A model generated the notes under the pieces. The model made no database searches. It was not told the DNA's origin and was given only the letters and a program-made list of their open reading frames with translations. DNA of 64,000 nucleotides from Candidatus Zambryskiibacteriota bacterium. GTDB lineage: Bacteria; Patescibacteriota; Minisyncoccia; Phycocordibacterales; DATDWN01. The position numbers and the translations under genes are program-made. This document shows, piece after piece, positions 6,577 through 27,455 of the stretch (position 1 is the stretch's first letter; every line of letters starts with the position of its first letter). The stretch spans positions 53,367-117,366 of the forward strand of contig JAPLZY010000008.1 in the NCBI GenBank assembly GCA_026394775.1, in the 5' to 3' direction.

Positions 6577-7132
6577 AGCTTCATTCGGTATGAAAAAAAC
6601 ATTAGATTTAAAAAGCGGCGTTTGAGATAACAAGCTTAATTGATTGTTACCTGGACTCCGCTTTGTGCGGATTTTTTGTTTCTCGGCCTGGCTCGATATT
6701 TGACAACTTAATTCCGCCACTTACTACTGACCAATGATGGGTCTTTTCGGGTGGGTAGGCGGAGCAATACAATGTTACTAACATCGAATAGATATTAGAT
6801 AACAGAGTATGAATGTAAGAAATATAATTGTGGTTTTTAAATTTCCTAATGGGAAATTTAAGAGCATATGGTGGATGCCTAGACTCTAAAGGGCGATGAA
6901 AGACGCGGCATGGTGGCGATACGTTTCGGGGAGGTACCTAGCAACCTTTGATCCGGAAATCTCTGAATGGGGGAACCCAACAGCTTTTGCTGTTACTCTA
7001 CAAATTATGTAGAGCGCACACCCAGGGAAGTAAAACATTTCAGTACCTGGAGGAAAAGAAAACAATGTTCGTAAGAACGACATTTCGTTAGTAGCGGCGA
7101 GCGAACACGAATGAGCCCAAACCGGCACATCA

Positions 7133-7244
7133 CATTGAGCACGGGGAAAATTTTAAATTTAAAATTCTAAATTTCAAAACAAAATGCATGTGCATCCGTT
7201 TTAAAATTTGAAATTAGAAATTTGAAATTCATCCCGCTCTTAGC
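7133..7244 (+). repeat. AT-rich imperfect palindrome inserted in 23S domain I (helix 9-type IVS/expansion)
   Basis: gaaaattttaaatttaaaattctaaatttcaaaac ... gttttaaaatttgaaattagaaatttgaaattc forms a long hairpin. It is closed by ccggcacatcac/gtgatgtgccgg. Confidence 0.55.
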
Positions 7245-7466
7245 GTGATGTGCCGGGGTTGTAAGGTAACAACGTCAAATTTATTTGAGAGAAGTTAAAA
7301 AATAGTATGTTAATGGAATGCACTGGAAAGTGCGACCCTAGAGGGTAATAGTCCCGTACATGAAAATATACTATCTTCTTTGTTGTTATTCTTGAGTACC
7401 TCGAGACATGAATAGCTCGGGGGAATCTGCCGGTACTAACCGGTAAGGCTAAATACTTTTAGAGAT

Positions 7467-7505
<39 letters not shown>

Positions 7506-8922
7506 GTCCGAGAGGACGGTGAAATAGACCTGAAACCATATGCTTACAAGGAGTCGGAGCGGGCAGCAATGTCCCGTCACGGCGTGCCTATTGAAGAATG
7601 AGCCAACGAGTTGATGGATGCAGCAAGGCTAAGTCCTTTACCGGACGGAGTCGTAGGGAAACCGAGTGTGAATAGCGCGTTAAGTTGTATGCATCAGACC
7701 CGAAGCCAGAGCGAGCTTACCATGAGCAGGGTGAACTTTGTCGAAAGATGAAGGGAGGCCCGAACAGTTTAGCCGTGCAATACTATCTGATGACTTGTGG
7801 TAAGAAGTGAAAAGCTAATCGAGCCTGGTAATAGCTGGTTCTCTCCGAAATAGCTTTTGGGCTAGCGTTAGGTGATCCCTTCCGGGGTAGAGCACTGGAA
7901 GGACTCAACAGGGAGCAATCTCGTGAGTCCTATCAAACTCCGAATACGGAAGATTACAGCCTAGCAGTTAGACGGTGGGGGCTAAGCTCCATACGTCAAA
8001 AGGGAAACAGCCCTGATCTCTATTTAAGGTCCCTAAATCTATGTTAAGTACACTTAAGGTGGTGGATTTTCTTTGACACTGAGGAGGTTGGCTTAGAAGC
8101 AGCCATCCTTTAAAGATAGCGTAACAGCTCACTCAGTAAGAGAATCTGCGCCGCAAATAATCGGGGTTAAACATAGTACCGAAACTGAGGGTTTGTATTT
8201 GTTTTTACAAGTACAAGCGGTAGGAGAGTATTCGTATCTGCGCTGAAGCCAAAGGGGTGACCCATGGTGGAGCGATGCGAAGTAAGAATGTTGGCACAAG
8301 TAACCACAATGCAGGTGAAATCCCTGCACGCCGAAAGACTAAGGTTTCCTGTTCAATGTTAATCAGAGCAGGGTTAGTCGGGCCTAAGGAAATGGAGAGA
8401 TCCGCATCCGATGGACATGAGGTTAATATTCCTCAACTTTTATGTAATGCGATGGAAGGACGGAGTGCTGTATGTAGGGCTCATTATTGGATTTGAGTCA
8501 CTGTCGTGAGAATGTGTCCCAGGTAAATCCGGGCACTCACTTTAATGTGGTATTCGAGCGGTTGCGAAACCTTGCGATTCGTCAAGAGGGATTCTACAAA
8601 GCGCGCTTCCAAGAAAAGTTTCTAAGCTTAAGTACATAAGAACCGTACCGTAAACCGACACAGGTAGTCAGGTCGAGTAGACCAAGGCGAACGAGTGAGA
8701 GATCCCCAAGGAACTCGGCAAAAAAGCAGCCGTAACTTCGGAATAAGGCTTGCCCACTTTAATGTGGGCCGCAGCTAAAGTATTTCTGGCAACTGTTTAT
8801 CAAAAACACAGCTCCCTGCGAACTCGTAAGAGGATGTATAGGGGGTGACACCTGACCAATGCCAGAAGGTCAAATATGGGAGCTAAATGTCGCAAGACGC
8901 TAGGTTGACTGTATAAGCCCTG

Positions 8923-9416
<494 letters not shown>

Positions 9417-9955
9417 GCGCACGAATGGTGTAATGACTGGAAAACTGTCTCGGGGATTTGCTCGGTGAAAATACAATACCGGTGAAGATGCCGGTTACCT
9501 GCAGTTAGACGAAAAGACCCCAGGAGCTTTACTGCATCTTGATATTGAGAATATGACTTGCATGCGTAGCATAGTGGTGAGGATTTGAAGGGCACTCCCG
9601 GGTAGCCTGGATCCGTCAGTGAAATAGCCATCTTGTTTGTTATATTTTCTAACCTCGGCGGAAAAAACGACGAGAGACAGTGTCTGGTGGGCAGTTTTAG
9701 TGGGGCGCTATCCTCCTAAAAAGTAACGGAGGAGTTTATTAAGGTCAGCTAGCCGTGAATGGAAACCATGGCGATAGTGTAATGGCACAAGCTGGCTTAA
9801 CTGTGAGACGTACATGTCAAACAGATGCGAAAGCAGAACATAGTGAACCGACGGTCCGTGTTAGAGGCGGCCGGAGATTATCGGATAAAAGCTACCCTGG
9901 GGATAACAGGCTGGTTGTGCCTAAGCGTCCAAAGCGACGGCACAGTTCGGCACCT

Positions 9956-10801
9956 TAACTCTCAATGTAAAAATTGGGAAACATCGGGGTGCCTATGGGA
10001 GTAATTCCATACAAAAAATATTTGGCTTATAACGGTGGACTCCATATACAAGCGTTGTATCAGAAATGGTATAATTAAAACAATATGGACAATACCGCGG
10101 GAAGTTTAACTCAATTACAGAAGTCATTTGTTATTGGAACTCTTTTGGGAGACGGATATATTCGTCAAGCAAAAGGGAGAAAAAACGCATTTCTTGAAGT
10201 AAATCATTCAATTACTCAAAAAGAGTATGTTGAATGGAAATATAGTATCTTGAAAAATTTGACACGAAGCGGTCCAAAATCTAGAAATGGAAATGGAACA
10301 CGCATCGCGTATAGATTTTTTACTAGACAGCATCCAGAATTTACTAAAATTATGGATTTGTTCTATAAAGATAGAAAGAAATGTATTCCTAATCTAAAAT
10401 TAGATCCTTTAATGGTGGCAGTATGGTTCATGGACGATGGAAGTAGATGTAATAAAGAAAATGTATACCTTAATACTCAACAATTTGCTAAAGAAGATCA
10501 GTATAAACTACTTGAATCTTTGAAAGAGATTGGTTTAGAGGGAACTCTGAACAAAGATAAAGAGTATTATCGCATTAGAATTAAAACATCAAGTATTCCT
10601 AAGTTGTTTGGAATAATAAAAGAATTTATTATTCCTTCCATGAGATATAAAATTGGGTTATGACCCTGTAGAGACTTGACCTGAAAGATGGTCAGAGTGT
10701 GAAGGAAAACTTCATGCTAACACGCCGAACTCCCTTTCATTTAGAGAAAGGGATGAAGATATAGTCCGATCCTTCTGGTAACAGAAGAAAAATACGACAC
10801 G
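9956..10801 (+). mobile_element. group I intron 2 in 23S (domain V, near E. coli position ~2500) carrying an intact LAGLIDADG HEG
   Basis: Exon GGCACCT|...|CGATGTCGGCTCATC. R-like gaccctgtagagacttgacc and S-like gatgaagatatagtcc elements are present. Confidence 0.75.
10085..10663 (+). CDS. LAGLIDADG homing endonuclease (double-motif, monomeric type)
   Basis: Motif 1 VIGTLLGDGYI and motif 2 VAVWFMDDGS, 192 aa, located inside the 23S intron. Confidence 0.85.
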   Translation: MDNTAGSLTQLQKSFVIGTLLGDGYIRQAKGRKNAFLEVNHSITQKEYVEWKYSILKNLTRSGPKSRNGNGTRIAYRFFTRQHPEFTKIMDLFYKDRKKCIPNLKLDPLMVAVWFMDDGSRCNKENVYLNTQQFAKEDQYKLLESLKEIGLEGTLNKDKEYYRIRIKTSSIPKLFGIIKEFIIPSMRYKIGL

Positions 10802-10896
10802 CGATGTCGGCTCATCTTATCCTGGGGGTGGAGAAGCTCCCAAGGGTTTGGCTGTTCGCCAATTAAAAAGATACGCGAGCTGGGTTCAGACCGTGG

Positions 10897-11234
10897 AGAC
10901 GAGAAACTTCGGTTTCAAGTCTCCACAATCTGAATCCTTAGAGGTTTTTTCGTTTGAAAAGGAAAAAGAAATGTAAGAAATTTCTTAAATATAAAAAGAG
11001 CTCGCCTCATCGGCGAGTCCGTCGAAGAGACGGAATAGGAACAATCACATCACGGCGGCATTTTATGGAAACATAAAATAGAGAAGCTGGGTATTTCGGT
11101 AGAATCCATTTCTAAGTGGACAATGCCGAGGGTGACTAATAATTTAGTTACTTGTAGAGACTACATACCAGCCATCCATGCAAATGGATGAGCGCATAGT
11201 CCGAACCTTCGAGTAATCGGAGTAACATAAGCGT
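10897..11234 (+). mobile_element. group I intron 3 in 23S at the I-CreI-type site (near E. coli 2593), ORF-less
   Basis: Exon GACCGTG|...|AGACAGGTTGGTCTCCTATCT (E. coli CGTCGTGAGACAGTTCGG). R-like cttgtagagactaca and S-like gcgcatagtccgaacc are present. Boundaries are ±3 nt. Confidence 0.65.
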
Positions 11235-11295
11235 GAGACAGGTTGGTCTCCTATCTACTGCAGGCGTTGATTCTTGAGAAGATTTGCCCCTAGTA

Positions 11296-12105
11296 ATTGA
11301 ATTGCTACTTCAAGGAGTAATCCTTGATGAAATAGTGGCTAATAACGGTGAAGTCTTAAGTGTATTCTAGTCTGTTGATAACTATTCTTGTGACGGTCCG
11401 TCATGAGTAGTACAATTTGTTTAGTGATAAACAAGCTTGAAGACCAGAAATAATTAAGATAATACCGTGGGAAGTCGATCTATTATTGATAGAGCATATA
11501 TGCAGGATTTCTCGATGGCGATGGAAGCTTAATGCTTCAAATTAAGAAAAGAGCAGATGGAAAAAGTAAAATTCGTTTTATGGCAACCATTTGTTTCTAT
11601 CAAGATACTCGTCACGAAAAAGAATTGATTTGGATTCAGAAAGTTCTAGGTATCGGATACATCTCGCGCAGAAATGACGGGATGTCTGAGATTAGAATTA
11701 ATGGATTTAAAACAGTTAAAGAAATTCTGGAAGACTTGATACCATATATCAGGTTTAAAAGGATTCAAGCAAAAAGTTTGCTTGAATCGTGCACAATTTT
11801 GTCTTCGACAAAATTTAATATGCTCAATCGTGAACAGCTAACTAAACTTGTTAATCTTGTCTTAGTGATTCAGAATGAAAATTACGTCACTAAGAAGAAG
11901 AAAACACGAAGTGAATTGTTACAGATAATAGGTTTGACCCCGTAACGACTTGTTTGAGTAATGTCAAACAGATTTATGTAGTACTGGAAAGTCTTGTGTA
12001 CTGAAACATGAGACAGGGCTACATTTATAATACGCCAACACCCTCAACCTTTTAAGGTCGGGTGAAGATATAGTCTGTGCTCCTGGTAACAGGGGAATAA
12101 AACGA
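11296..12105 (+). mobile_element. group I intron 4 in 23S, inserted within the sarcin-ricin loop sequence (CTAGTA|CGAGAGGACC)
   Basis: Exon ...gcccctagta|...|cgagaggaccggggtgaactgacc. The downstream exon aligns base for base with E. coli 2658-2760. S-like ggtgaagatatagtctg is present near the 3' end. Confidence 0.65.
11458..11945 (+). pseudogene. degenerate I-CreI-like single-motif LAGLIDADG homing endonuclease (start codon lost, -1 frameshift before the motif)
   Basis: Frame 1 reads DNTVGSRSIIDRAY (compare MDNTAGSLTQL of the intact HEG), but its ATG is replaced by taaGAT. The frame shifts at about 11500-11504 into AGFLDGDGSLMLQIKKRADG...GIGYISRR..., which shows the I-CreI fold pattern. Confidence 0.6.
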
Positions 12106-12452
12106 CGAGAGGACCGGGGTGAACTGACCTCTGGTGTATCTGCTGTCTTGCCAAAGGCATCGCAGAGTAGCTAAGTTGGGAAATGATAAACGCTGAAAGC
12201 ATCTAAGCGTGAAGCATACTTCAAGATAAGGAATCGTTTGAGACCCGTAAGAGATGATTACGTGATAGGCACTCGGTGTACGCACAGCAATGTGTTGAGC
12301 CAAGGTGTACTAATTAGTCGATTCTTATTAGGAAATTTACGAACCACTCCACTTCGGTGTGGAGGTTATACAAAATACATTCATGCTCTGTTATCTGATA
12401 TTAATTTGTCAGAGTTTTTTGGCATAAAAAAGAAAATAAATAATTGAATCTT

Positions 12453-12586
12453 TAGTTCTGGTGATTCGTCGCAGATGGTCCGCCCTACAGGCGCTGTACA
12501 CCTTTTACATTTTGCTATTTATTAAAATCGCAAAATGATCAAGGTCTTGCGCTTGGGTCCCATCCCAAGCTCACCTGTTCTCATTC
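12453..12586 (+). pseudogene. partial 5S rRNA pseudo-copy interrupted by a 97-nt insert containing a REP-like hairpin
   Basis: 12453-12474 is identical to 5S nt 1-22 and 12572-12586 is identical to 5S nt ~27-42. Between them lies gcttggg-tcccat-cccaagc. The 3' two thirds of 5S are missing. Confidence 0.5.
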
Positions 12587-12610
12587 AATTAATACAATCA
12601 GTTGAAAATT

Positions 12611-12725
12611 TAGTTCTGGTGATTCGTCGCAAAGGTCACACCTGTTCTCATTCCGAACACAGTAGTTAAGCTTTGTTGAGGCGATGATACTCCGCAAGGG
12701 GGAAAGTAGCTAGTCGCCAGAACTA
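12611..12725 (+). rRNA. rrf: 5S rRNA
   Basis: agttctggtg...cacctgttctcattccgaacacag...ccagaacta. Helix I pairing and the conserved CCGAACAC loop are present. Confidence 0.85.
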
Positions 12726-22904: not shown

Positions 22905-23838
22905 AGAGGCAGATTAAGCATCTGCAATCCTAATTTAGTAACAGCATTAAAAATTCGTATTTACCGTGCGCGACTTTGAACCGTAAGGTTCTTAGCAAAT
23001 TCGGCTTATATGCTGGGACTCTGTACAGAGCTGCGTTCAACACATGTTGAATTCTCTACAGACAATCAGCAGGGAAGTCGGATATAATAAAGGTAATGTC
23101 TTTATCGCAAATTCAACAATATATTCTCACAGGGCTTTTGCTTGGAGATGGTTGTCTTGAACGAAAGTCCAAGAACAGCCGACTCCAGGTCAAACAGTCA
23201 GTAGGTAAGAAAGAATATGTATTCTGGTTATATAATTATTTTTCTGAATTCGTAAAAACTCCTCCCCAACAAAGGAAGGATACAAATCAGTGGTATTTTG
23301 CCACTCGATCTTTATCTCAATTTGAAGAATGGAATGCGGTGTTTTACAAAAACAGAAAGAAAATTGTTCCAGAAAATATATCAGAGTTATTGGCTTCGCC
23401 GATAACACTTGCCGTATGGATGATGGAACTCTCGATTATCGAGAGAAATCACATTATTCATTTACCTATAGTACTGACTCGTTTAGTGTAGAAGAGGTTT
23501 CTCTTCTACAGGATGCTTTGTTAGAAAACTTTGGGATAGAATCATCGATTCAAACTCCAAAGTCGCGAGGAAAAAAATATACAAAATTGTATATTGGAAA
23601 AAATGGGCGAGAGCGATTTATAAAAATCATTCAGCCTCACATCCTCGATTGTTTTCCGTATAAAGTGCCTCCAATTATATCTTGACCCCTCAGAGACTGA
23701 TCCTGCGGACATATTAATGTATGTCTTGAGGGTGAGATAGAGAGATTTTTTTAAATCTTCTATCAGACGCCGAACCCCATTTTTTATAGAATGGGTGATG
23801 ATATAGTCCAATCCTCGTAGTGATATGAGAACAACTGG
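22905..23838 (+). mobile_element. group I intron in the 16S 530-loop region (near E. coli 516-518) with a decayed HEG
   Basis: Exon ...gctaaactcgtg|...|ccagcagcagcggtaatac. R-like ccctcagagactgatcc and S-like ggtgatgatatagtcc are present. Confidence 0.75.
23096..23685 (+). pseudogene. frameshifted double-motif LAGLIDADG homing endonuclease
   Basis: Motif 1 LTGLLLGDGCL lies in one frame and motif 2 ...LAVWMM/MDDGTLDYREK continues in the -1 frame. The break is at about 23415-23430, within the direct repeat tggatgatgga. Confidence 0.65.
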
Positions 23839-24837: not shown

Positions 24838-25257
24838 TCAAAATTAAAAGCGCCGGGCAGGTAATAAATCTAGTTGGTTAAAATCCAACCTTGAAAAAGT
24901 AGCGAAAGGGTAATCTGCTGACCGTGAGGTTGGCAGGTGAAGGATCCTAGTAGCAAAAAGCAGCCTATTTATAAAAAGAGAGGTACGACCCATCAGGTGA
25001 GTCATGGGGAAGTATCAACAAAATTAAGTTTTTGGTCTCAAGTAGGATGCAAGGAACAGAGTTATTACTGACCCCTGGGAGATCTCATGGTGTAAAAGAC
25101 AATGAATAAGTACCTTGAGAAGTCAGCTGCGTCGTAGTAGTTTCGATCTAGTATCGGAATGAAGGACAAAATCGTTAGTTTTTGAAACTAACGAACTCGC
25201 GTAGTGCGGGAAATCCGCACGCTACGTGGGAACGCGAAATATTGTTAAATTATCGCC
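24838..25257 (+). mobile_element. ~420-nt intron-like insertion in 16S adjacent to the decoding-centre sequence (TTGTAC|...|CCGCCCGTCA), ORF-less, class uncertain
   Basis: The exons align to E. coli 1385-1405 with the insert between them. R/S-like gacccctgggagatc and cgatctagtatcgg are only loosely canonical. Confidence 0.55.
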
Positions 25258-25505
25258 ATCCGCCCGTCAACTCAAGGGAGATGGGAATACCCGAAGCCTC
25301 ACGTATGTGAGTTCACGGTAAGTTCATCGACAGGGAGTAAGTCGTAACAAGGCACGGCTAGCGGAAGCTGGTCGTGGATTAATTCAATTTGAAACCTATT
25401 TCGCTTTGCGAAATATTAAGGTGTCGATATTGGAGATCTCGATCGAGTCTCTAATGGACTATGACTGTAGTCTTAAAAACAGTATGACACCAGAGAAAGA
25501 TCTGG

Positions 25506-25531
25506 TAGAACGGAACAAAATATAGAATAGT
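25506..25531 (+). promoter_or_regulatory. 3' strand of the 16S processing stem
   Basis: Complementary to 22394-22420. Confidence 0.6.
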
Positions 25532-25542
25532 ATTTTTAGAAA

Positions 25543-25568
25543 AAACGCCCATAACAAGGCGTTTTTTC
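25543..25568 (+). terminator. terminator after 16S
   Basis: aaaacgcc-cataacaa-ggcgtttttt. Confidence 0.7.
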
Positions 25569-25584
25569 TATGTAAAAACAAAGC

Positions 25585-25614
25585 TTGACTTATAGAAGTC
25601 ATGCGTTGTATAAT
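25585..25614 (+). promoter_or_regulatory. promoter TTGACT-18-TATAAT
   Basis: Upstream of a small ORF and the tRNA-Ile locus. Confidence 0.45.
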
Positions 25615-25622
25615 ATTTTCAG

Positions 25623-25865
25623 ATGAGATACCAAAAAACAATCACATGTTTGTTTATGGTTTTGGCAATCGGTCTGCTTTGCGGTATCAAGCCTGATCAG
25701 ACGGCGTTGTCATCGGTCCTGCACGTAGCAGGGATTGTCGTGTGTATTGTGGTGCTTTTCTTCAATGATGTGCTTCCTGATCTTCAGGGGGCAAAAAAAG
25801 AAGAGTGGGAGATGCGCCACCCTGCCTCAAATAATCCTTCGCGTCACCTTGTCGTGCGGAGGTAA
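25623..25865 (+). CDS. possible small membrane protein (80 aa)
   Basis: ATG sits 9 nt after the -10 box. Two hydrophobic helices are predicted. Could be spurious. Confidence 0.3.
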   Translation: MRYQKTITCLFMVLAIGLLCGIKPDQTALSSVLHVAGIVVCIVVLFFNDVLPDLQGAKKEEWEMRHPASNNPSRHLVVRR

Positions 25866-25993
25866 AATTTTGGAAGACCGCCGAGTCTTCCAACAAAGCC
25901 GGTATGCCCTGCGGGATCCGGCTTTTGTCTTGTAAAAATGACCTTTTTCTGATATATTTTTGTGGTTATTGTTTTAGAAATTGTGTTAAAAGT

Positions 25994-26017
25994 GCGCGTG
26001 TAGCTCAGCTGGTGGAG
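25994..26017 (+). pseudogene. 5' fragment of tRNA-Ile (acceptor and D arm), identical to nt 1-20 of the intact gene
   Basis: gcgcgtgtagctcagctggtGgag followed immediately by the 31-nt module tgaggttgggtagggacccaaccgcaagacc. Confidence 0.5.
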
Positions 26018-26177
26018 TGAGGTTGGGTAGGGACCCAACCGCAAGACCGGAGGCCGACGGGCCGAGGTGGGGTCGCGAGCAAAGTCAGTAGACTTTGACA
26101 TGTGGCATCGACTGACCTCTTGCAGAGGCTGTATACCTTTTGGATCTTTTTCAAAAAATAATAATAATTGATTCTGT

Positions 26178-26250
26178 GCGCGTGTAGCTCAGCTGGTAGA
26201 GCAATCGACTGATACTCGGTAGGTCCCAAGTTCGACCCTTGGCACGCGCA
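26178..26250 (+). tRNA. tRNA-Ile (anticodon GAT)
   Basis: Manual fold gives a 7-bp acceptor gcgcgtg/cacgcgc, D stem gctc/gagc, anticodon stem atcga/tcggt, loop ctGATac, T stem ccaag/cttgg, T loop ttcgacc and discriminator A. No CCA is encoded. Confidence 0.8.
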
Positions 26251-26329
26251 CAAAGTCTGGAATTATTATTTTTTTAAAAAATCTCAAAAAGTCTTGTGAA
26301 ATGAAGTCAGTCACTTTTACTCGGTAGGC

Positions 26330-26449
26330 TGAGGTTGGGGAGGGACCCAACCGAAGAACCTTTTGAGGTTTTTTATGAGTTTGCGAAATAAAAAATCCAA
26401 AAGGTATACTGCGCCTGTAGGGCGACATGTCGACCCTTGGCACGCGCAC
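26330..26449 (+). pseudogene. 3' fragments of tRNA-Ile (actcggtagg, then a 100-nt insert, then tcgacccttggcacgcgca)
   Basis: 26430-26449 is identical to the last 20 nt of the intact tRNA. A second copy of the 31-nt module lies at 26330-26360. Confidence 0.5.
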
Positions 26450-26549
26450 AAAATTCGGTATATACAAACAAAAGATTTCAGATTGCTTCAGAAATCAATA
26501 GATTGCATTATTTCTAGTTTGTGTTTATATAATAGATGGGAGGTGCCAA

Positions 26550-26732
26550 ATGTTTGCACCAGTTCCTCGATTCAACATCATTCGGAAAGTAAAAAATACC
26601 TACTTTTCCTGGTTTTCACCGCTCGAGGTTAGTGTGGGAGTAGTAATACTTCTCGTGCTCGCCTACTATGCAGTGTTACTTTTGGGACCCTGGCTCGCTG
26701 CCTTTGATCCCTCCACCTGGAAGCATGTCTAA
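26550..26732 (+). CDS. small membrane protein (60 aa)
   Basis: GGGAGG lies 7 nt upstream of the ATG. One TM helix VSVGVVILLVLAYYAVLLLGPWLAA. Confidence 0.35.
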   Translation: MFAPVPRFNIIRKVKNTYFSWFSPLEVSVGVVILLVLAYYAVLLLGPWLAAFDPSTWKHV

Positions 26733-26813
26733 ACCTTTTCAGAGGCGCCGTAGCGATACGGCGCTTTTCGCTTCCTTGCCACAAGAGCATCTAGGGTATA
26801 GGATAAAAGCTAT

Positions 26814-27455
26814 ATGAAAAAAACATTTAGTGTTGTTGAGGTTTTAAAAAGTGCTTGGCAGTTATTTTTAATACACAAGAAGTTCTATATTAAGACGGTT
26901 TTGATATATGGACTTATTGCGGTTGCGGCCGACCTGCTTTCAGGTGATAAGTCGATGCGACTTGTTGATACTATCCTCGGACTCGTGAGCACTATATCTT
27001 CATGGTATGGAACTTTTATCTTAATAAAGGCCTCTTTGTCTCTTACGCAAAACAAACCCATCCCGACAGACGTTTCCAGTCTTAGTTTGATGTCTGCTGT
27101 ATATCTTGTGCTCGCATCTATTCTAGTTGCGTGTGGTGTATTTTTGGGACTCATTTTATTTATTGTCCCAGGTCTTATCTTTGCGGTACGAAGTTCTCTT
27201 GCTCAGTACATCATCATTGATCAAAATGAAAAAGTGATCCCTGCAATCAAAAAAAGTATGGCGCTGACAAAAGGGTATTTTTGGAGTTTTGCTCGACTGA
27301 TTCTTTGTATTTGTGTTCTCGGTCTTCTTTCTATGTTTCCACTATTTGGACTCGGCTTCATTGTTCTTATTCCCGTATCAACGATAGCAATGTCTTTGGT
27401 GTATCGAAAGATAAGTAAAATGAACGAGGGATCTTTAGAACAAGTTATTGTATAA
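26814..27455 (+). CDS. integral membrane protein (hypothetical)
   Basis: 213 aa with 5-6 TM helices. Confidence 0.5.
   Translation: MKKTFSVVEVLKSAWQLFLIHKKFYIKTVLIYGLIAVAADLLSGDKSMRLVDTILGLVSTISSWYGTFILIKASLSLTQNKPIPTDVSSLSLMSAVYLVLASILVACGVFLGLILFIVPGLIFAVRSSLAQYIIIDQNEKVIPAIKKSMALTKGYFWSFARLILCICVLGLLSMFPLFGLGFIVLIPVSTIAMSLVYRKISKMNEGSLEQVIV

Follow-up and report, generated by a model that had tools for sequence, protein, structure and literature searches.

An old tRNA-Ile gene broken by small structured elements, one of which encloses an intact copy, in a Zambryskiibacteriota genome

In the genome of a Candidatus Zambryskiibacteriota bacterium, an intact tRNA-Ile gene is surrounded by pieces of another, which raises the question of what broke the second gene and how the cell keeps a working tRNA. 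We analysed this locus within a 64,000-nt stretch of contig JAPLZY010000008.1 (the window). A preliminary description had noted the intact gene, a 5' and a 3' fragment of it, each tied to a 31-nt direct repeat, and had offered three explanations: a gene interrupted by an insertion that supplied a replacement copy of it and left integrase att-site footprints, a permuted or intron-containing tRNA, or recombination scars.

The intact gene is as described. ARAGORN and Rfam agree on a single call, a tRNA-Ile(GAT) at 26178-26250/51, which scores 67.6 bits against RF00005 (threshold 29). Partly complementary A+T-rich arms (26147-26177 and 26252-26282) flank this gene and lengthen its acceptor stem. 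The fragments also proved real. The first 20 nt of the tRNA (GCGCGTGTAGCTCAGCTGGT) occur exactly twice, at 25994 and 26178, with no copy expected in shuffled sequences, and the 5' repeat extends over 25992-26017 (26 nt) with one mismatch. The last 19 nt (TCGACCCTTGGCACGCGCAC) likewise occur exactly twice, at 26232 and 26430, within an exact repeat of 23 nt, and the 11-nt anticodon-arm piece TACTCGGTAGG is found at 26213 and 26318 (0.01 expected). This last piece had been described as fused directly to the second 31-mer; the piece is there, but C 26329 lies in between. A fourth outer fragment, ATCGACTGA, adds to the earlier list. The outer fragments are exact, collinear and free of overlap, they abut at 35/36, and the spacing between the tRNA repeats is 158 nt and 178 nt. 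The sole promoter-like site found by a promoter scan upstream of the entire locus is sigma-70-like, and the upstream flank AATTGTGTTAAAAGT of the outer copy is homologous to the flank of the gene at an empty site in a relative, L021. The locus is thus an old tRNA-Ile(GAU) gene at its native place, with native promoter and flanks kept, that three inserts have divided into four collinear pieces (nt 1-24, 27-35, 36-46 and 55-76). Because the locus is 100% identical across six independent public assemblies, it is not an assembly artefact.

Table 1. Positions of the tRNA-Ile pieces, elements and 5S features in the window.
Feature	Position	Strand	Description
Promoter	25930..25958	+	sigma-70-like, TTGTAA-17-TATATT, extended -10 TG
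Outer tRNA-Ile nt 1-24	25994..26017	+	23/24 identity to inner gene; A21 -> G
Element X, 90 nt	26017..26106	+	GUGAG; H1 26018-26043; H2x 26046-26068; long hairpin H4x 26072-26106
Outer tRNA-Ile nt 27-35	26107..26115	+	ATCGACTGA; ends within anticodon
Element M, Z-type, inverted	26115..26320	-	H2/H3 loop holds the intact tRNA
M 3' module		-	H2 3' strand 26135-26142; AUAC; H4 26116-26128
Inner intact tRNA-Ile(GAU)	26178..26251	+	presumed working gene; ARAGORN, Rfam
M 5' module		-	H1' 26299-26316; CACAAGAC; H2 5' strand 26285-26292
Outer tRNA-Ile nt 36-46	26318..26328	+	TACTCGGTAGG
Element Z, 97 nt	26329..26425	+	CUGAG; H1 26330-26355; H2 26358-26405 around H3; AUAC; H4 26412-26424
Outer tRNA-Ile nt 55-73 and 4-nt trailer	26430..26452	+	exact 23-nt copy of 26232-26254
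5S rRNA pseudo-copy locus	12452..12586
Copy of 5S nt 1-29	12452-12480
Z-type element at 5S	12481-12574		antisense; R2 103 bits
Short run matching next 5S stretch	12575-12586		followed by 23-nt spacer
Intact 5S gene	about 12610-12722

The three inserts, X, M and Z, belong to one family of small ORF-less elements with two subtypes. Its members, 80-110 nt long, share a plan of a 5' GUGAG, a hairpin H1, CGCAAGACC, a second helix around a variable hairpin and a terminal hairpin, with H1 and the terminal hairpin occupying the two element ends. The X subtype has a GC-rich middle and a terminal hairpin of 35 nt, and the Z subtype has ACCUU(UU)G...CAAAAGGU, GUAC and a hairpin with the loop UGUAAG (UGUAG in H4 of Z itself). 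X is inserted between tRNA nt 24 and 25/27, and Z stands in place of nt 47-54 (break 46/55). The 31-mer, whose core lies at 26018 and 26330 only (one mismatch; none expected), does form the hairpin proposed for it; it is a real repeat but not a self-contained unit, being merely the shared 5' module, or first third, of X and Z.

The hairpins of these elements are conserved as structures. X scored 108 bits with covariance model R1; of its 31 pairs, 12 changed on both sides, and 97.8% of cells were paired. Z scored 93.5 bits with model R2, with 8 of 18 pairs changed on both sides and 99.1% of cells paired. None of 500 shuffles did as well in either case. Seven differing H1 stems are each perfectly paired, and G.U pairs are confined to the element's own strand. 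Compensatory changes in relatives, named in the preliminary description as grounds for refuting its view, since they would imply a functional structured RNA, are thus present in the elements themselves, and the 31-mer is therefore part of a structured element rather than a scar. Rfam 15 gave no match to the X region (26010-26112) at E<=10, and matches over 25500-27000 were at chance level, the tRNA excepted; an Rfam search of the whole window likewise identified only the tRNA at this locus. The two covariance models now define a structured element family that is absent from Rfam and common to distant CPR lineages; it is possibly a mobile element or ribozyme of a new kind. These ~90-nt hairpin-rich elements are apparently undescribed; searches of the full-text literature turned up no account of them.

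The intact gene lies within the middle insert. M, which is of the Z type, interrupts the anticodon loop at 35/36 in antisense orientation, and its H2/H3 loop contains the A+T-rich arms and the complete tRNA-Ile gene, which is antisense to M and so oriented like the broken gene. Model R2 matched 26114-26192 on the minus strand with 24.9 bits. Orthologous copies of M are present in L018, L019, L025 and L026, and their H1' stems differ yet stay paired.

Related genomes, with 86-94% identical pyruvate kinase, revealed intermediates and a sporadic distribution of the elements. The synteny comparison that had been suggested did find an empty site: L021 and L022 have only the promoter, 34 nt, the tRNA and the next gene, with no fragments or elements, and L024 likewise lacks an element. 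X and M are present and Z is absent in L018; L019 and L025 have M alone, in a locus that is inverted as a whole; and L026 has M and an extra Z within the outer T-loop. The promoter sequence CTTGTAAAAA..TTTTTCTGATATATT also lies 5' of the tRNA in L018, L021 and L024 and occurs in inverted form in L019, L025 and L026. L018, L019 and L025 retain the ATCGACTGA piece (nt 27-35), and the L019 genome has its X at a different tRNA (L005). In L019 and L018 the outer copy shows visible decay, and in the window and L018 the outer and inner copies have lineage-specific substitutions in common. The idea of a split gene with its own replacement copy thus survives in part: the outer sequence breaks off after nt 35 and continues from nt 36, promoter and flanks are native, and relatives have an empty site. 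Recombination holds only as a force reshaping the locus, through the inversion and through inner and outer copies staying alike, and the 31-mer is no recombination scar.

With moderate confidence, we favour a history in which protein-less elements broke the old tRNA-Ile gene, the inner copy is the working one, and the elements are non-autonomous mobile DNA of stable-RNA genes. M, together with its tRNA, would have split the old gene at 35/36, and X (24/25) and Z (46/55) would be later strikes on the dispensable dead halves. Transcription would start at the old promoter, pass through the 5' remnant and X and reach the inner copy, which normal tRNA end-processing would free, leaving the outer pieces as a dead gene. 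We read the locus as the product of an undescribed small mobile element of stable-RNA genes and not as a split, permuted or intron-bearing tRNA.

The same elements occur at other stable-RNA genes. Blastn-short and model searches of the window returned only the three elements at tRNA-Ile and a fourth at the 5S rRNA locus, where an antisense Z-type element lies in a pseudo-copy upstream of the intact gene (Table 1). The 5S site is empty in L032 and L035-L039. L034 has an orthologous insertion, with X nested in the H1 loop of Z; its broken 5S piece is of the L032 sequence type and its intact 5S of the window/L035 type, so that the intact, working copy would be of foreign origin. In a scan covering 185,579 species genomes, together with metagenomes, the H1 motif was found in CPR contigs only inside tRNA-like pseudo-copies adjoining intact tRNA-Asn, Thr, Ile(UAU), Gln and Glu genes. 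The elements occur in either orientation relative to the host gene. An intact gene is always beside the element-bearing pseudo-copy, and no pseudo-copy is complete at any locus. Copy number is low (four per 64 kb here, and one exact-motif match per genome elsewhere). In four different host genes GGTGGAG precedes the element where the intact neighbours carry GGTAGAG, and CGACTGACC follows the element in the window and in L001 alike; these patterns indicate that flanking sequence moves along with the element. The 5' flanks are purine- and G-rich (AGAG, GGAG, GAAG, AAGG, GGGG, CAGG) with no single fixed word. Neither phage records (blastn) nor viral contigs (two patterns) contained a match to the elements.

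We consider unlikely an explanation in which the 460-nt transcript acts in its entirety as one composite functional RNA: X and Z would form, with the tRNA fragments, a selected precursor scaffold guiding maturation of the inner tRNA, or X would be a small RNA cut from the tRNA leader by RNase P, or a tRNA-half mimic matching tRNA-Ile. One promoter does lie upstream of everything, with no terminator within the locus, and the fold of the plus-strand RNA is a nest of long-range helices, closed by the outer acceptor stem (-194.5 kcal/mol, z = -10), although the duplicated tRNA pieces partly build in so negative a z-score. X covaries and is more conserved than the tRNA (94-96% identity between genomes whose tRNA-Ile identity is ~90%), the outer fragments follow the inner gene's lineage-specific sequence, and at upstream-type loci the element is always in the leader of the intact gene. 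However, the close relatives L021 and L024 manage without the arrangement, X is missing from this locus in L019, and Z is found only in the window, the extra Z of L026 being in the outer T-loop. The same elements also occupy 5S and unrelated tRNAs, often in antisense to the transcript of the host gene, and the G.U pairs of M are on the strand antisense to the pre-tRNA. The decay of the outer copy in L019 and L018 also argues against a selected scaffold.

Phage and ICE integrative elements, which use tyrosine integrases, also target tRNA genes. Like the locus described here, they use anticodon-loop and T-loop targets, leave a displaced tRNA fragment as a direct repeat and carry sequence that keeps a working tRNA after insertion. 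It is quite improbable, in our view, that the fragments are attL/attR-type footprints, or scars of integrase- or Campbell-type integration followed by decay of larger elements, with the 31-mer regions as leftovers of element arms. Short foreign DNA does lie between direct repeats of tRNA 5' and 3' segments (26 nt and 23 nt), and the breaks are in the anticodon loop and T-loop, reportedly the classic sublocations of integrase crossover. Moreover, L001 has a perfect 66-nt duplication (upstream flank and tRNA nt 1-9) on both sides of its insert, as from a single circle crossover, and the tRNA-Ile locus is inverted in one clade. But the repeats enclose only 62-206 nt, and neither an integrase nor any other gene; the 158 nt and 178 nt between the repeats here contain no ORF with a recombinase domain, and the neighbouring ORFs are unrelated. 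What they enclose is a conserved, covarying three-hairpin unit, in inserts of 90-206 nt. This unit is found in more than one kind of gene, 5S rRNA included, and at sites in the D-arm and the variable loop; it occurs in either orientation and also nested within a copy of itself. A gene piece follows the element in the pseudo-copy, so the element is inside one repeat rather than between repeats. In addition, a whole tRNA is supplied here rather than a 3' part, and 5' and 3' remnants are both left. The att-site footprints of the preliminary description thus found no support.

Could the outer gene instead be a genuine tRNA gene, with several introns, split or permuted, from whose transcript the inserts are taken out, as a group I intron at 35/36, an archaeal-type intron or a mini group II/III-like intron? 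Patescibacteria tRNAs have group I introns at position 35/36 (PMC13011429), exactly the middle break here, in the same phylum and likewise at loci that standard tools mis-annotate. The elements begin with GUGAG, X terminates in AC with a hairpin of D5-like dimensions, elements nest in a twintron-like manner, and the genome is rich in rRNA introns. Nevertheless, we regard this explanation as very improbable indeed. The outer pieces joined without the three inserts make 68 nt; they lack one residue at nt 26 as well as nt 47-54, which include the T stem's 5' strand. ARAGORN found 0 tRNA genes in them, and its intron mode called the inner gene alone. Incomplete pseudo-copies at every locus, an intact copy always next door and the antisense orientation of half of the Z-type copies also argue against splicing.

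The intron classes were also compared one by one. RF00028 gave no match in 25500-27000 at E<=10, position 35 of this tRNA-Ile is A, not U, and the insert is an antisense hairpin element with a tRNA rather than a group I core. X has its 3' end within its own hairpin H4x, unpaired with the 5' junction, and inspection of the junctions found no bulge-helix-bulge (3-4-3) motif. As for group II/III introns, X has GUGAG and AC at its two ends, and its H4x hairpin measures 35 nt, has a bulge of 1 nt and closes in a loop that is not GNRA; X was matched by no group II model even at E<=10, and elements of 80-110 nt are too small for a catalytic group II/III core. There are parallels in archaea, as outlined for the transposable tRNA introns of Thermoproteales (Fujishima 2010, cited in PMC10714607) and in the tRNA-disruption model of Caldiarchaeum (PMC3293823): different tRNA genes carry related short sequences at many non-canonical positions, tRNA fragments adjoin intact or interrupted genes, and a mobile element is invoked for both. 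As these accounts outline them, archaeal introns have intact exons, a bulge-helix-bulge and EndA splicing, whereas the exons here are incomplete, the motif was not seen, and a bacterial host has an intact copy alongside.

Several other known classes were compared. REP/BIME/REPIN sequences and the PATEs of IS200/IS605 are ORF-less, ~100 nt long, built of hairpins and strand-specific, with the enzyme (Y1 HUH) encoded elsewhere; they lack terminal inverted repeats and target duplication, and a short conserved head (GTAG in REPs) directly precedes the hairpin foot. The present elements share the subterminal hairpins, the one-strand G.U pairs, the lack of terminal inverted repeats and of target duplication and a short head at the hairpin foot (GTGAG). 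REPs and PATEs, however, are extragenic and of high copy number or insert 3' of a fixed tetranucleotide, whereas here there are few copies, in stable-RNA genes only, with three hairpins and conserved junctions, and no Y1_Tnp domain was found in the ORFs scanned around the elements. MITEs and classical IS were rejected: neither X nor Z has ends that are inverted repeats of each other, and 1-8 nt are missing at the junctions rather than duplicated. H1 contains GTTGGGT/ACCCAAC, as an integron attC site might, but its sequence is not conserved across subfamilies. No model match was obtained for SRP RNA, tmRNA, RNase P RNA or known classes of self-cleaving ribozyme, and both orientations occur within one replichore, unlike an IS608-like replication-strand bias. 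Dada DNA transposons (PMC8869645) and eukaryotic R2 retrotransposons, which specialise on tRNA, snRNA, 5S or rRNA genes, are likewise mobile elements dedicated to stable-RNA genes, but they have their own enzymes, multicopy targets and target duplications, and the targets here are single-copy genes of a reduced genome.

We propose that the elements of this family target loops and junctions of stable-RNA genes, in tRNA and 5S as well as in the hairpin loops of the elements themselves, and that the usual site lies directly 3' of a short run rich in G. An insertion would survive only with an intact copy of the essential gene beside it or, here, inside it. The elements may pass between lineages with short flanking gene stretches via recombination in highly conserved genes. 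Mobility is suggested only by their distribution. Pfam searches of the ORFs around the elements, in the window and at seven other loci, found no transposase, integrase, reverse transcriptase or HUH gene, and the elements have neither terminal inverted repeats nor target-site duplications, which speaks against mobility, as do the low copy number and the slight imprecision of the junctions. The only finds of the same Pfam scan were LAGLIDADG genes in rRNA introns. The high identity of X and the kept hairpins of orthologous M copies fit a selected function as well as recent spread, and the substitutions shared by outer and inner copies need either gene conversion or independent events that copied the resident gene. 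A simple scan detected no minus-strand promoters for the antisense element copies. The mobile-element reading itself offers no route for a resident gene into an element loop.

A bolder proposal, which we hold to be rather doubtful, makes X, Z and M a new class of mobile elements that have RNA structure but no protein and that home into exposed loops of stable-RNA genes as well as, like twintrons, into one another; in one lineage a whole tRNA-Ile gene would have been captured in antisense, in an act of selfish gene replacement. If so, an antisense tRNA would shield the element's RNA intermediate from RNase P, and an element that destroys an essential gene while replacing it would be impossible to lose. 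The elements might also be miniaturised ribozymes or group II/III-like relics mobilised in trans.

On the history that we favour, single-copy essential tRNA and 5S genes of a minimal genome would survive invasion through a working copy kept beside the wreck or, here, inside the invader. It would also explain tRNA and 5S "fragments" that confuse annotation and break CPR assemblies. CPR rRNA genes carry IVS, or insertion sequences, that are group I/II-like introns, often LAGLIDADG-bearing, in host genes that remain functional (PMC11270868), and the window's 16S and 23S genes contain several. These are also sporadic structured inserts in stable-RNA genes of the same bacteria, but X, Z and M are far shorter, no intron model matches them, and they lie in non-functional copies. 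The two 5S sequence types of L034 would add recombination-driven exchange of stable-RNA loci to this picture of intron-rich CPR genomes. A weak match to model R2 (20 bits) was also seen at positions 10358-10441 of L010.

Within the tRNA-Ile locus, an intact gene lies inside the broken remains of an older copy that is interrupted by three small hairpin-built inserts, X, M and Z (see table). As the preliminary description had claimed, the inner gene is tRNA-Ile(GAU); it is the sole tRNA of the window (ARAGORN; Rfam, 67.6 bits). Exact second copies exist of its first 20 nt, of its 3' end (19 nt, with 4 nt of trailer) and of the anticodon-stem piece TACTCGGTAGG (nt 36-46), and the core of the reported 31-nt repeat is found at two positions only. 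The 5' repeat extends to 26 nt with one mismatch, and a fourth tRNA piece, ATCGACTGA (nt 27-35), had gone unreported. In the shuffle controls the value was 0.00 for each 20-mer and for the 31-mer core, and 0.01 for the 11-mer; the fourth piece (9 nt) is supported instead by its position and its conservation in three relatives (L018, L019 and L025). The surrounding 3.3 kb are 100% identical across six independent public assemblies. A promoter graded good (TTGTAA-17-TATATT) lies 35 nt ahead of the outer 5' fragment, and no terminator-like site was found within the locus.

The outer gene does not qualify as a split or intron-bearing tRNA. An intron-containing or permuted tRNA had been raised earlier as a possibility and did not hold up, as ARAGORN's intron mode sees the inner gene alone. 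Removal of the three inserts leaves 68 nt, in which ARAGORN calls no tRNA, and the joined pieces are missing nt 47-54 as well as a residue at nt 26. No complete pseudo-copy was found at any locus compared.

Coordinates of features at the tRNA-Ile and rRNA loci and in comparison genomes
Feature	Sequence	Position
Promoter	window	25930-25958
Outer tRNA, 5' repeat	window	from 25992 (exact 20 nt, 25994-26013)
X	window	26017-26106
31-mer core	window	26018 and 26330
Outer tRNA, nt 27-35	window	26107-26115
M	window	26320-26115, minus strand
H1' of M	window	26316-26299
Inner tRNA-Ile(GAU)	window	26178-26250/51
Outer tRNA, nt 36-46	window	26318-26328
Z	window	26329-26425
Outer tRNA, 3' copy	window	26430-26452
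Outer/inner stretches sharing substitutions	window	25992-26017/26176-26201
Outer/inner stretches sharing substitutions	L018	576-600/761-785
Inverted unit	L019	2360-2680
Inverted unit	L025	70-380
Inverted unit	L026	3220-3580
Inverted repeat around tRNA-Ile	L021	2023-2127
Inverted repeat around tRNA-Ile	L022	2061-2165
42-nt insert in T-loop of tRNA remnant	L018	919-960
Related copy, opposite orientation, in tRNA debris	L024	about 835-870
Weak Z-model match (20.4 bits)	L010	10358-10441
5S locus	window	12452-12722
Copy of 5S nt 1-29, upstream of intact 5S	window	12452-12480
Antisense Z-type element (R2, 103 bits)	window	12481-12574
X nested in Z, antisense to 5S	L034	2085-2260, minus strand
16S insert, ORF-less	window	24848-25262
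Group-II D1-D4 match (36.7 bits)	window	25082-25167
Domain-V-like hairpin	window	near 25198-25228
Second 16S-splitting insert	window	22977-23688
LAGLIDADG_2 ORF	window	23096-23491
Weak group I match	window	23703-23830
23S rRNA	window	6848-12330
23S pieces	window	to 9026, 9108-9157, 9387-9955, 10802-11295, 12105-12330
23S insert (LAGLIDADG ORF)	window	9956-10801 (10085-10663)
23S insert (LAGLIDADG ORF)	window	11296-12104 (11532-11945)

Using homologues of the downstream membrane protein, we collected the locus from six further lineages, whose pyruvate kinases are 86-94% identical. The empty site for which a synteny comparison had been suggested is present, in clean form, in L021/L022, where the promoter is followed by 34 nt, a tRNA-Ile within a perfect 15-bp inverted repeat and the next gene. 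Ahead of the outer 5' fragment lies a flank homologous to that of the empty-site gene, which identifies the outer copy as the resident gene. A further relative, L024, has antisense tRNA debris downstream of an intact gene that is free of M, X and Z. L018 resembles the window in having the 5' fragment, X, ATCGACTG, M enclosing the tRNA and a 3' remnant, with no Z. In one clade the whole unit, promoter included, is turned round with respect to the protein genes on either side; here L019 and L025 lack X but have M enclosing the tRNA, with a 3' remnant that is decaying, and L026 carries in addition a small Z in the remnant T-loop. This sporadic, site-specific yet variable distribution is the outcome expected of mobile elements. 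As separate observations, the inverted repeat of L021/L022 (AATTCTGTTCAAAGT / ACTTTGAACAGAATT) lengthens the acceptor stem to >22 bp and could either serve in processing or indicate mobility of the tRNA cassette itself, and L018 has a distinct 42-nt insert built on a 13-bp hairpin (GTATTTTCAAAAT-GACG-ATTTTGAAAATAC).

The 31-mer forms the first part, or head, of a larger conserved element. When one genome per species was scanned for the motif, GGTTGGGNAGGGACCCAACC turned up in four CPR genomes, and a relaxed pattern run on metagenomes added three CPR contigs. All CPR motif matches lie within a tRNA-like fragment adjoining an intact tRNA of the same identity: Asn (L001, L009, L010), Thr (L004), Ile(UAU) (L005, which is the X site of the L019 genome), Gln (L006) and Glu (L008). 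The sequence 3' of the 31-mer is of two types. X, which measures exactly 90 nt in all but one of its six copies, consists of GUGAG, hairpin H1, CGCAAGRCC, a GC-rich helix around a hairpin, GAGGYGGGG and a 35-nt hairpin with a GUGAC end. Z (79-97 nt) shares this head and continues with ACCUU(UU)G...CAAAAGGU around a variable hairpin, GUAC and a 4-bp hairpin with the loop UGUAAG. Covariation is strong: X has 31 pairs, 12 with two-sided changes, with 97.8% of cells paired and no equally good shuffle in 500, and pairing collapses to 32-43% in slid controls; Z has 18 pairs, 8 with two-sided changes, with 99.1% paired; and the seven different versions of the H1 stem are each perfectly paired. Neither type has a match in Rfam 15, even at E<=10, and literature searches yielded no description of X, Z or M elements. 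One weak match to the Z model, in L010, is intergenic, without a nearby tRNA, and may be a decayed Z copy outside a stable-RNA gene.

M is a Z-type element on the minus strand, partially matched by the Z covariance model R2 and inserted at 35/36 of the outer gene, within its anticodon loop. On that strand, GUAAA, H1', CACAAGAC, the 5' strand of H2 and an A+T-rich arm precede the antisense of the whole tRNA, which is followed by a second A+T-rich arm, AUCCAAAAGGUAUAC, H4 (CCUC UGCAA GAGG) and CAGUCGAU. This order places the intact tRNA within the loop of the second helix of M.

A less likely but live alternative is that the tRNA-Ile locus as a whole makes a composite or functional RNA. It is kept alive by the complete, resident-type tRNA within M and by X being more conserved than the tRNA itself. 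In the fold of the plus-strand transcript, moreover, helices are nested and the outer acceptor stem closes them (z = -10), although duplication alone inflates this score. Template-switch mutation can also yield compensatory changes in DNA hairpins, so that covariation alone is no proof of RNA function. Lineage-specific substitutions are common to the outer and inner copies both in the window and in L018, which also fits a functional RNA; the pattern implies that very short repeats evolve in concert or that local events arose independently, with gene conversion or repeated local events as possible causes.

The same family is found at the 5S rRNA gene, where an antisense Z sits in a truncated 5S copy; the family is thus not tRNA-specific. 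This Z is followed by 12 nt matching the next 5S stretch, a 23-nt spacer and the intact 5S. The 5S sites are empty in L032 and L035-L039. L034 shares the insertion seen in the window and, within the H1 loop of that Z, also carries an X (92 bits). Its broken 5' piece has the L032 type of 5S sequence, whereas its intact 5S and the 12 nt upstream are of the window/L035 type, and the dead and working genes therefore have different origins.

Both orientations relative to host transcription are seen, which makes insertion independent of the host transcript. X has G.U pairs on its own strand (columns 59/107 and 61/105), and so does M in H1', H2 and H4, where this strand is antisense to the tRNA; therefore one specific strand folds, as RNA or single-stranded DNA. 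In tRNAs, insertions fall at the D-arm/anticodon-arm junction (24/25) and in the anticodon loop, the variable loop and the T-loop; others lie in a loop region of 5S and in the H1 loop of the element itself. In nearly every case (G)UGAG is preceded by a 5' flank with AG or GG at its end. Short flanks move along with the element: four host genes carry GGTGGAG where their intact copies read GGTAGAG, CGACTGACC is present in two host genes and GCAGATGGTC at both 5S copies. At L001 a perfect 66-nt duplication surrounds the insert, the pattern expected from one crossover with a circular molecule or from rescue by incoming DNA. No mobility enzyme was found near the elements. We propose that X, Z and M are small non-autonomous mobile elements, specialised on stable-RNA genes and moved in trans by a putative activity, that recombination in the very conserved stable-RNA genes may carry them between lineages, and that an insertion would be kept only where an intact gene copy exists, because a hit on a sole copy would be lethal. 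Some behaviour is shared with each of the nearest known systems: tRNA-targeting integrative elements, transposable archaeal tRNA introns, rRNA intervening sequences, Patescibacteria group I introns at 35/36, eukaryotic Dada and R2 elements, and REP/REPIN and IS200/IS605-derived mini-elements. X, Z and M appear to lack at least one tested defining feature of each.

The window genome belongs to the CPR/Patescibacteria, and its nearest MAGs carry a Saccharibacteria label. At NCBI, a VWA protein identical to that of the window is assigned to Candidatus Zambryskibacteria. Its rRNA genes are unlinked and insert-rich, with LAGLIDADG genes in three inserts. Near the 16S 3' end, an insert of ~415 nt interrupts CTTGTAC(TCA)...CCGCCCGTCA and contains a group-II D1-D4 match and a domain-V-like hairpin (CGCGUAG-UGCGG-GAAAU-CCGCA-CG-CUACGUG); a recent survey reported group II introns to be absent from complete Patescibacteria genomes (PMC13011429). 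A weak group I match follows the second 16S insert. The 23S rRNA gene is in at least five pieces, a fragmentation hidden by the single Rfam match, which ends at 10013.
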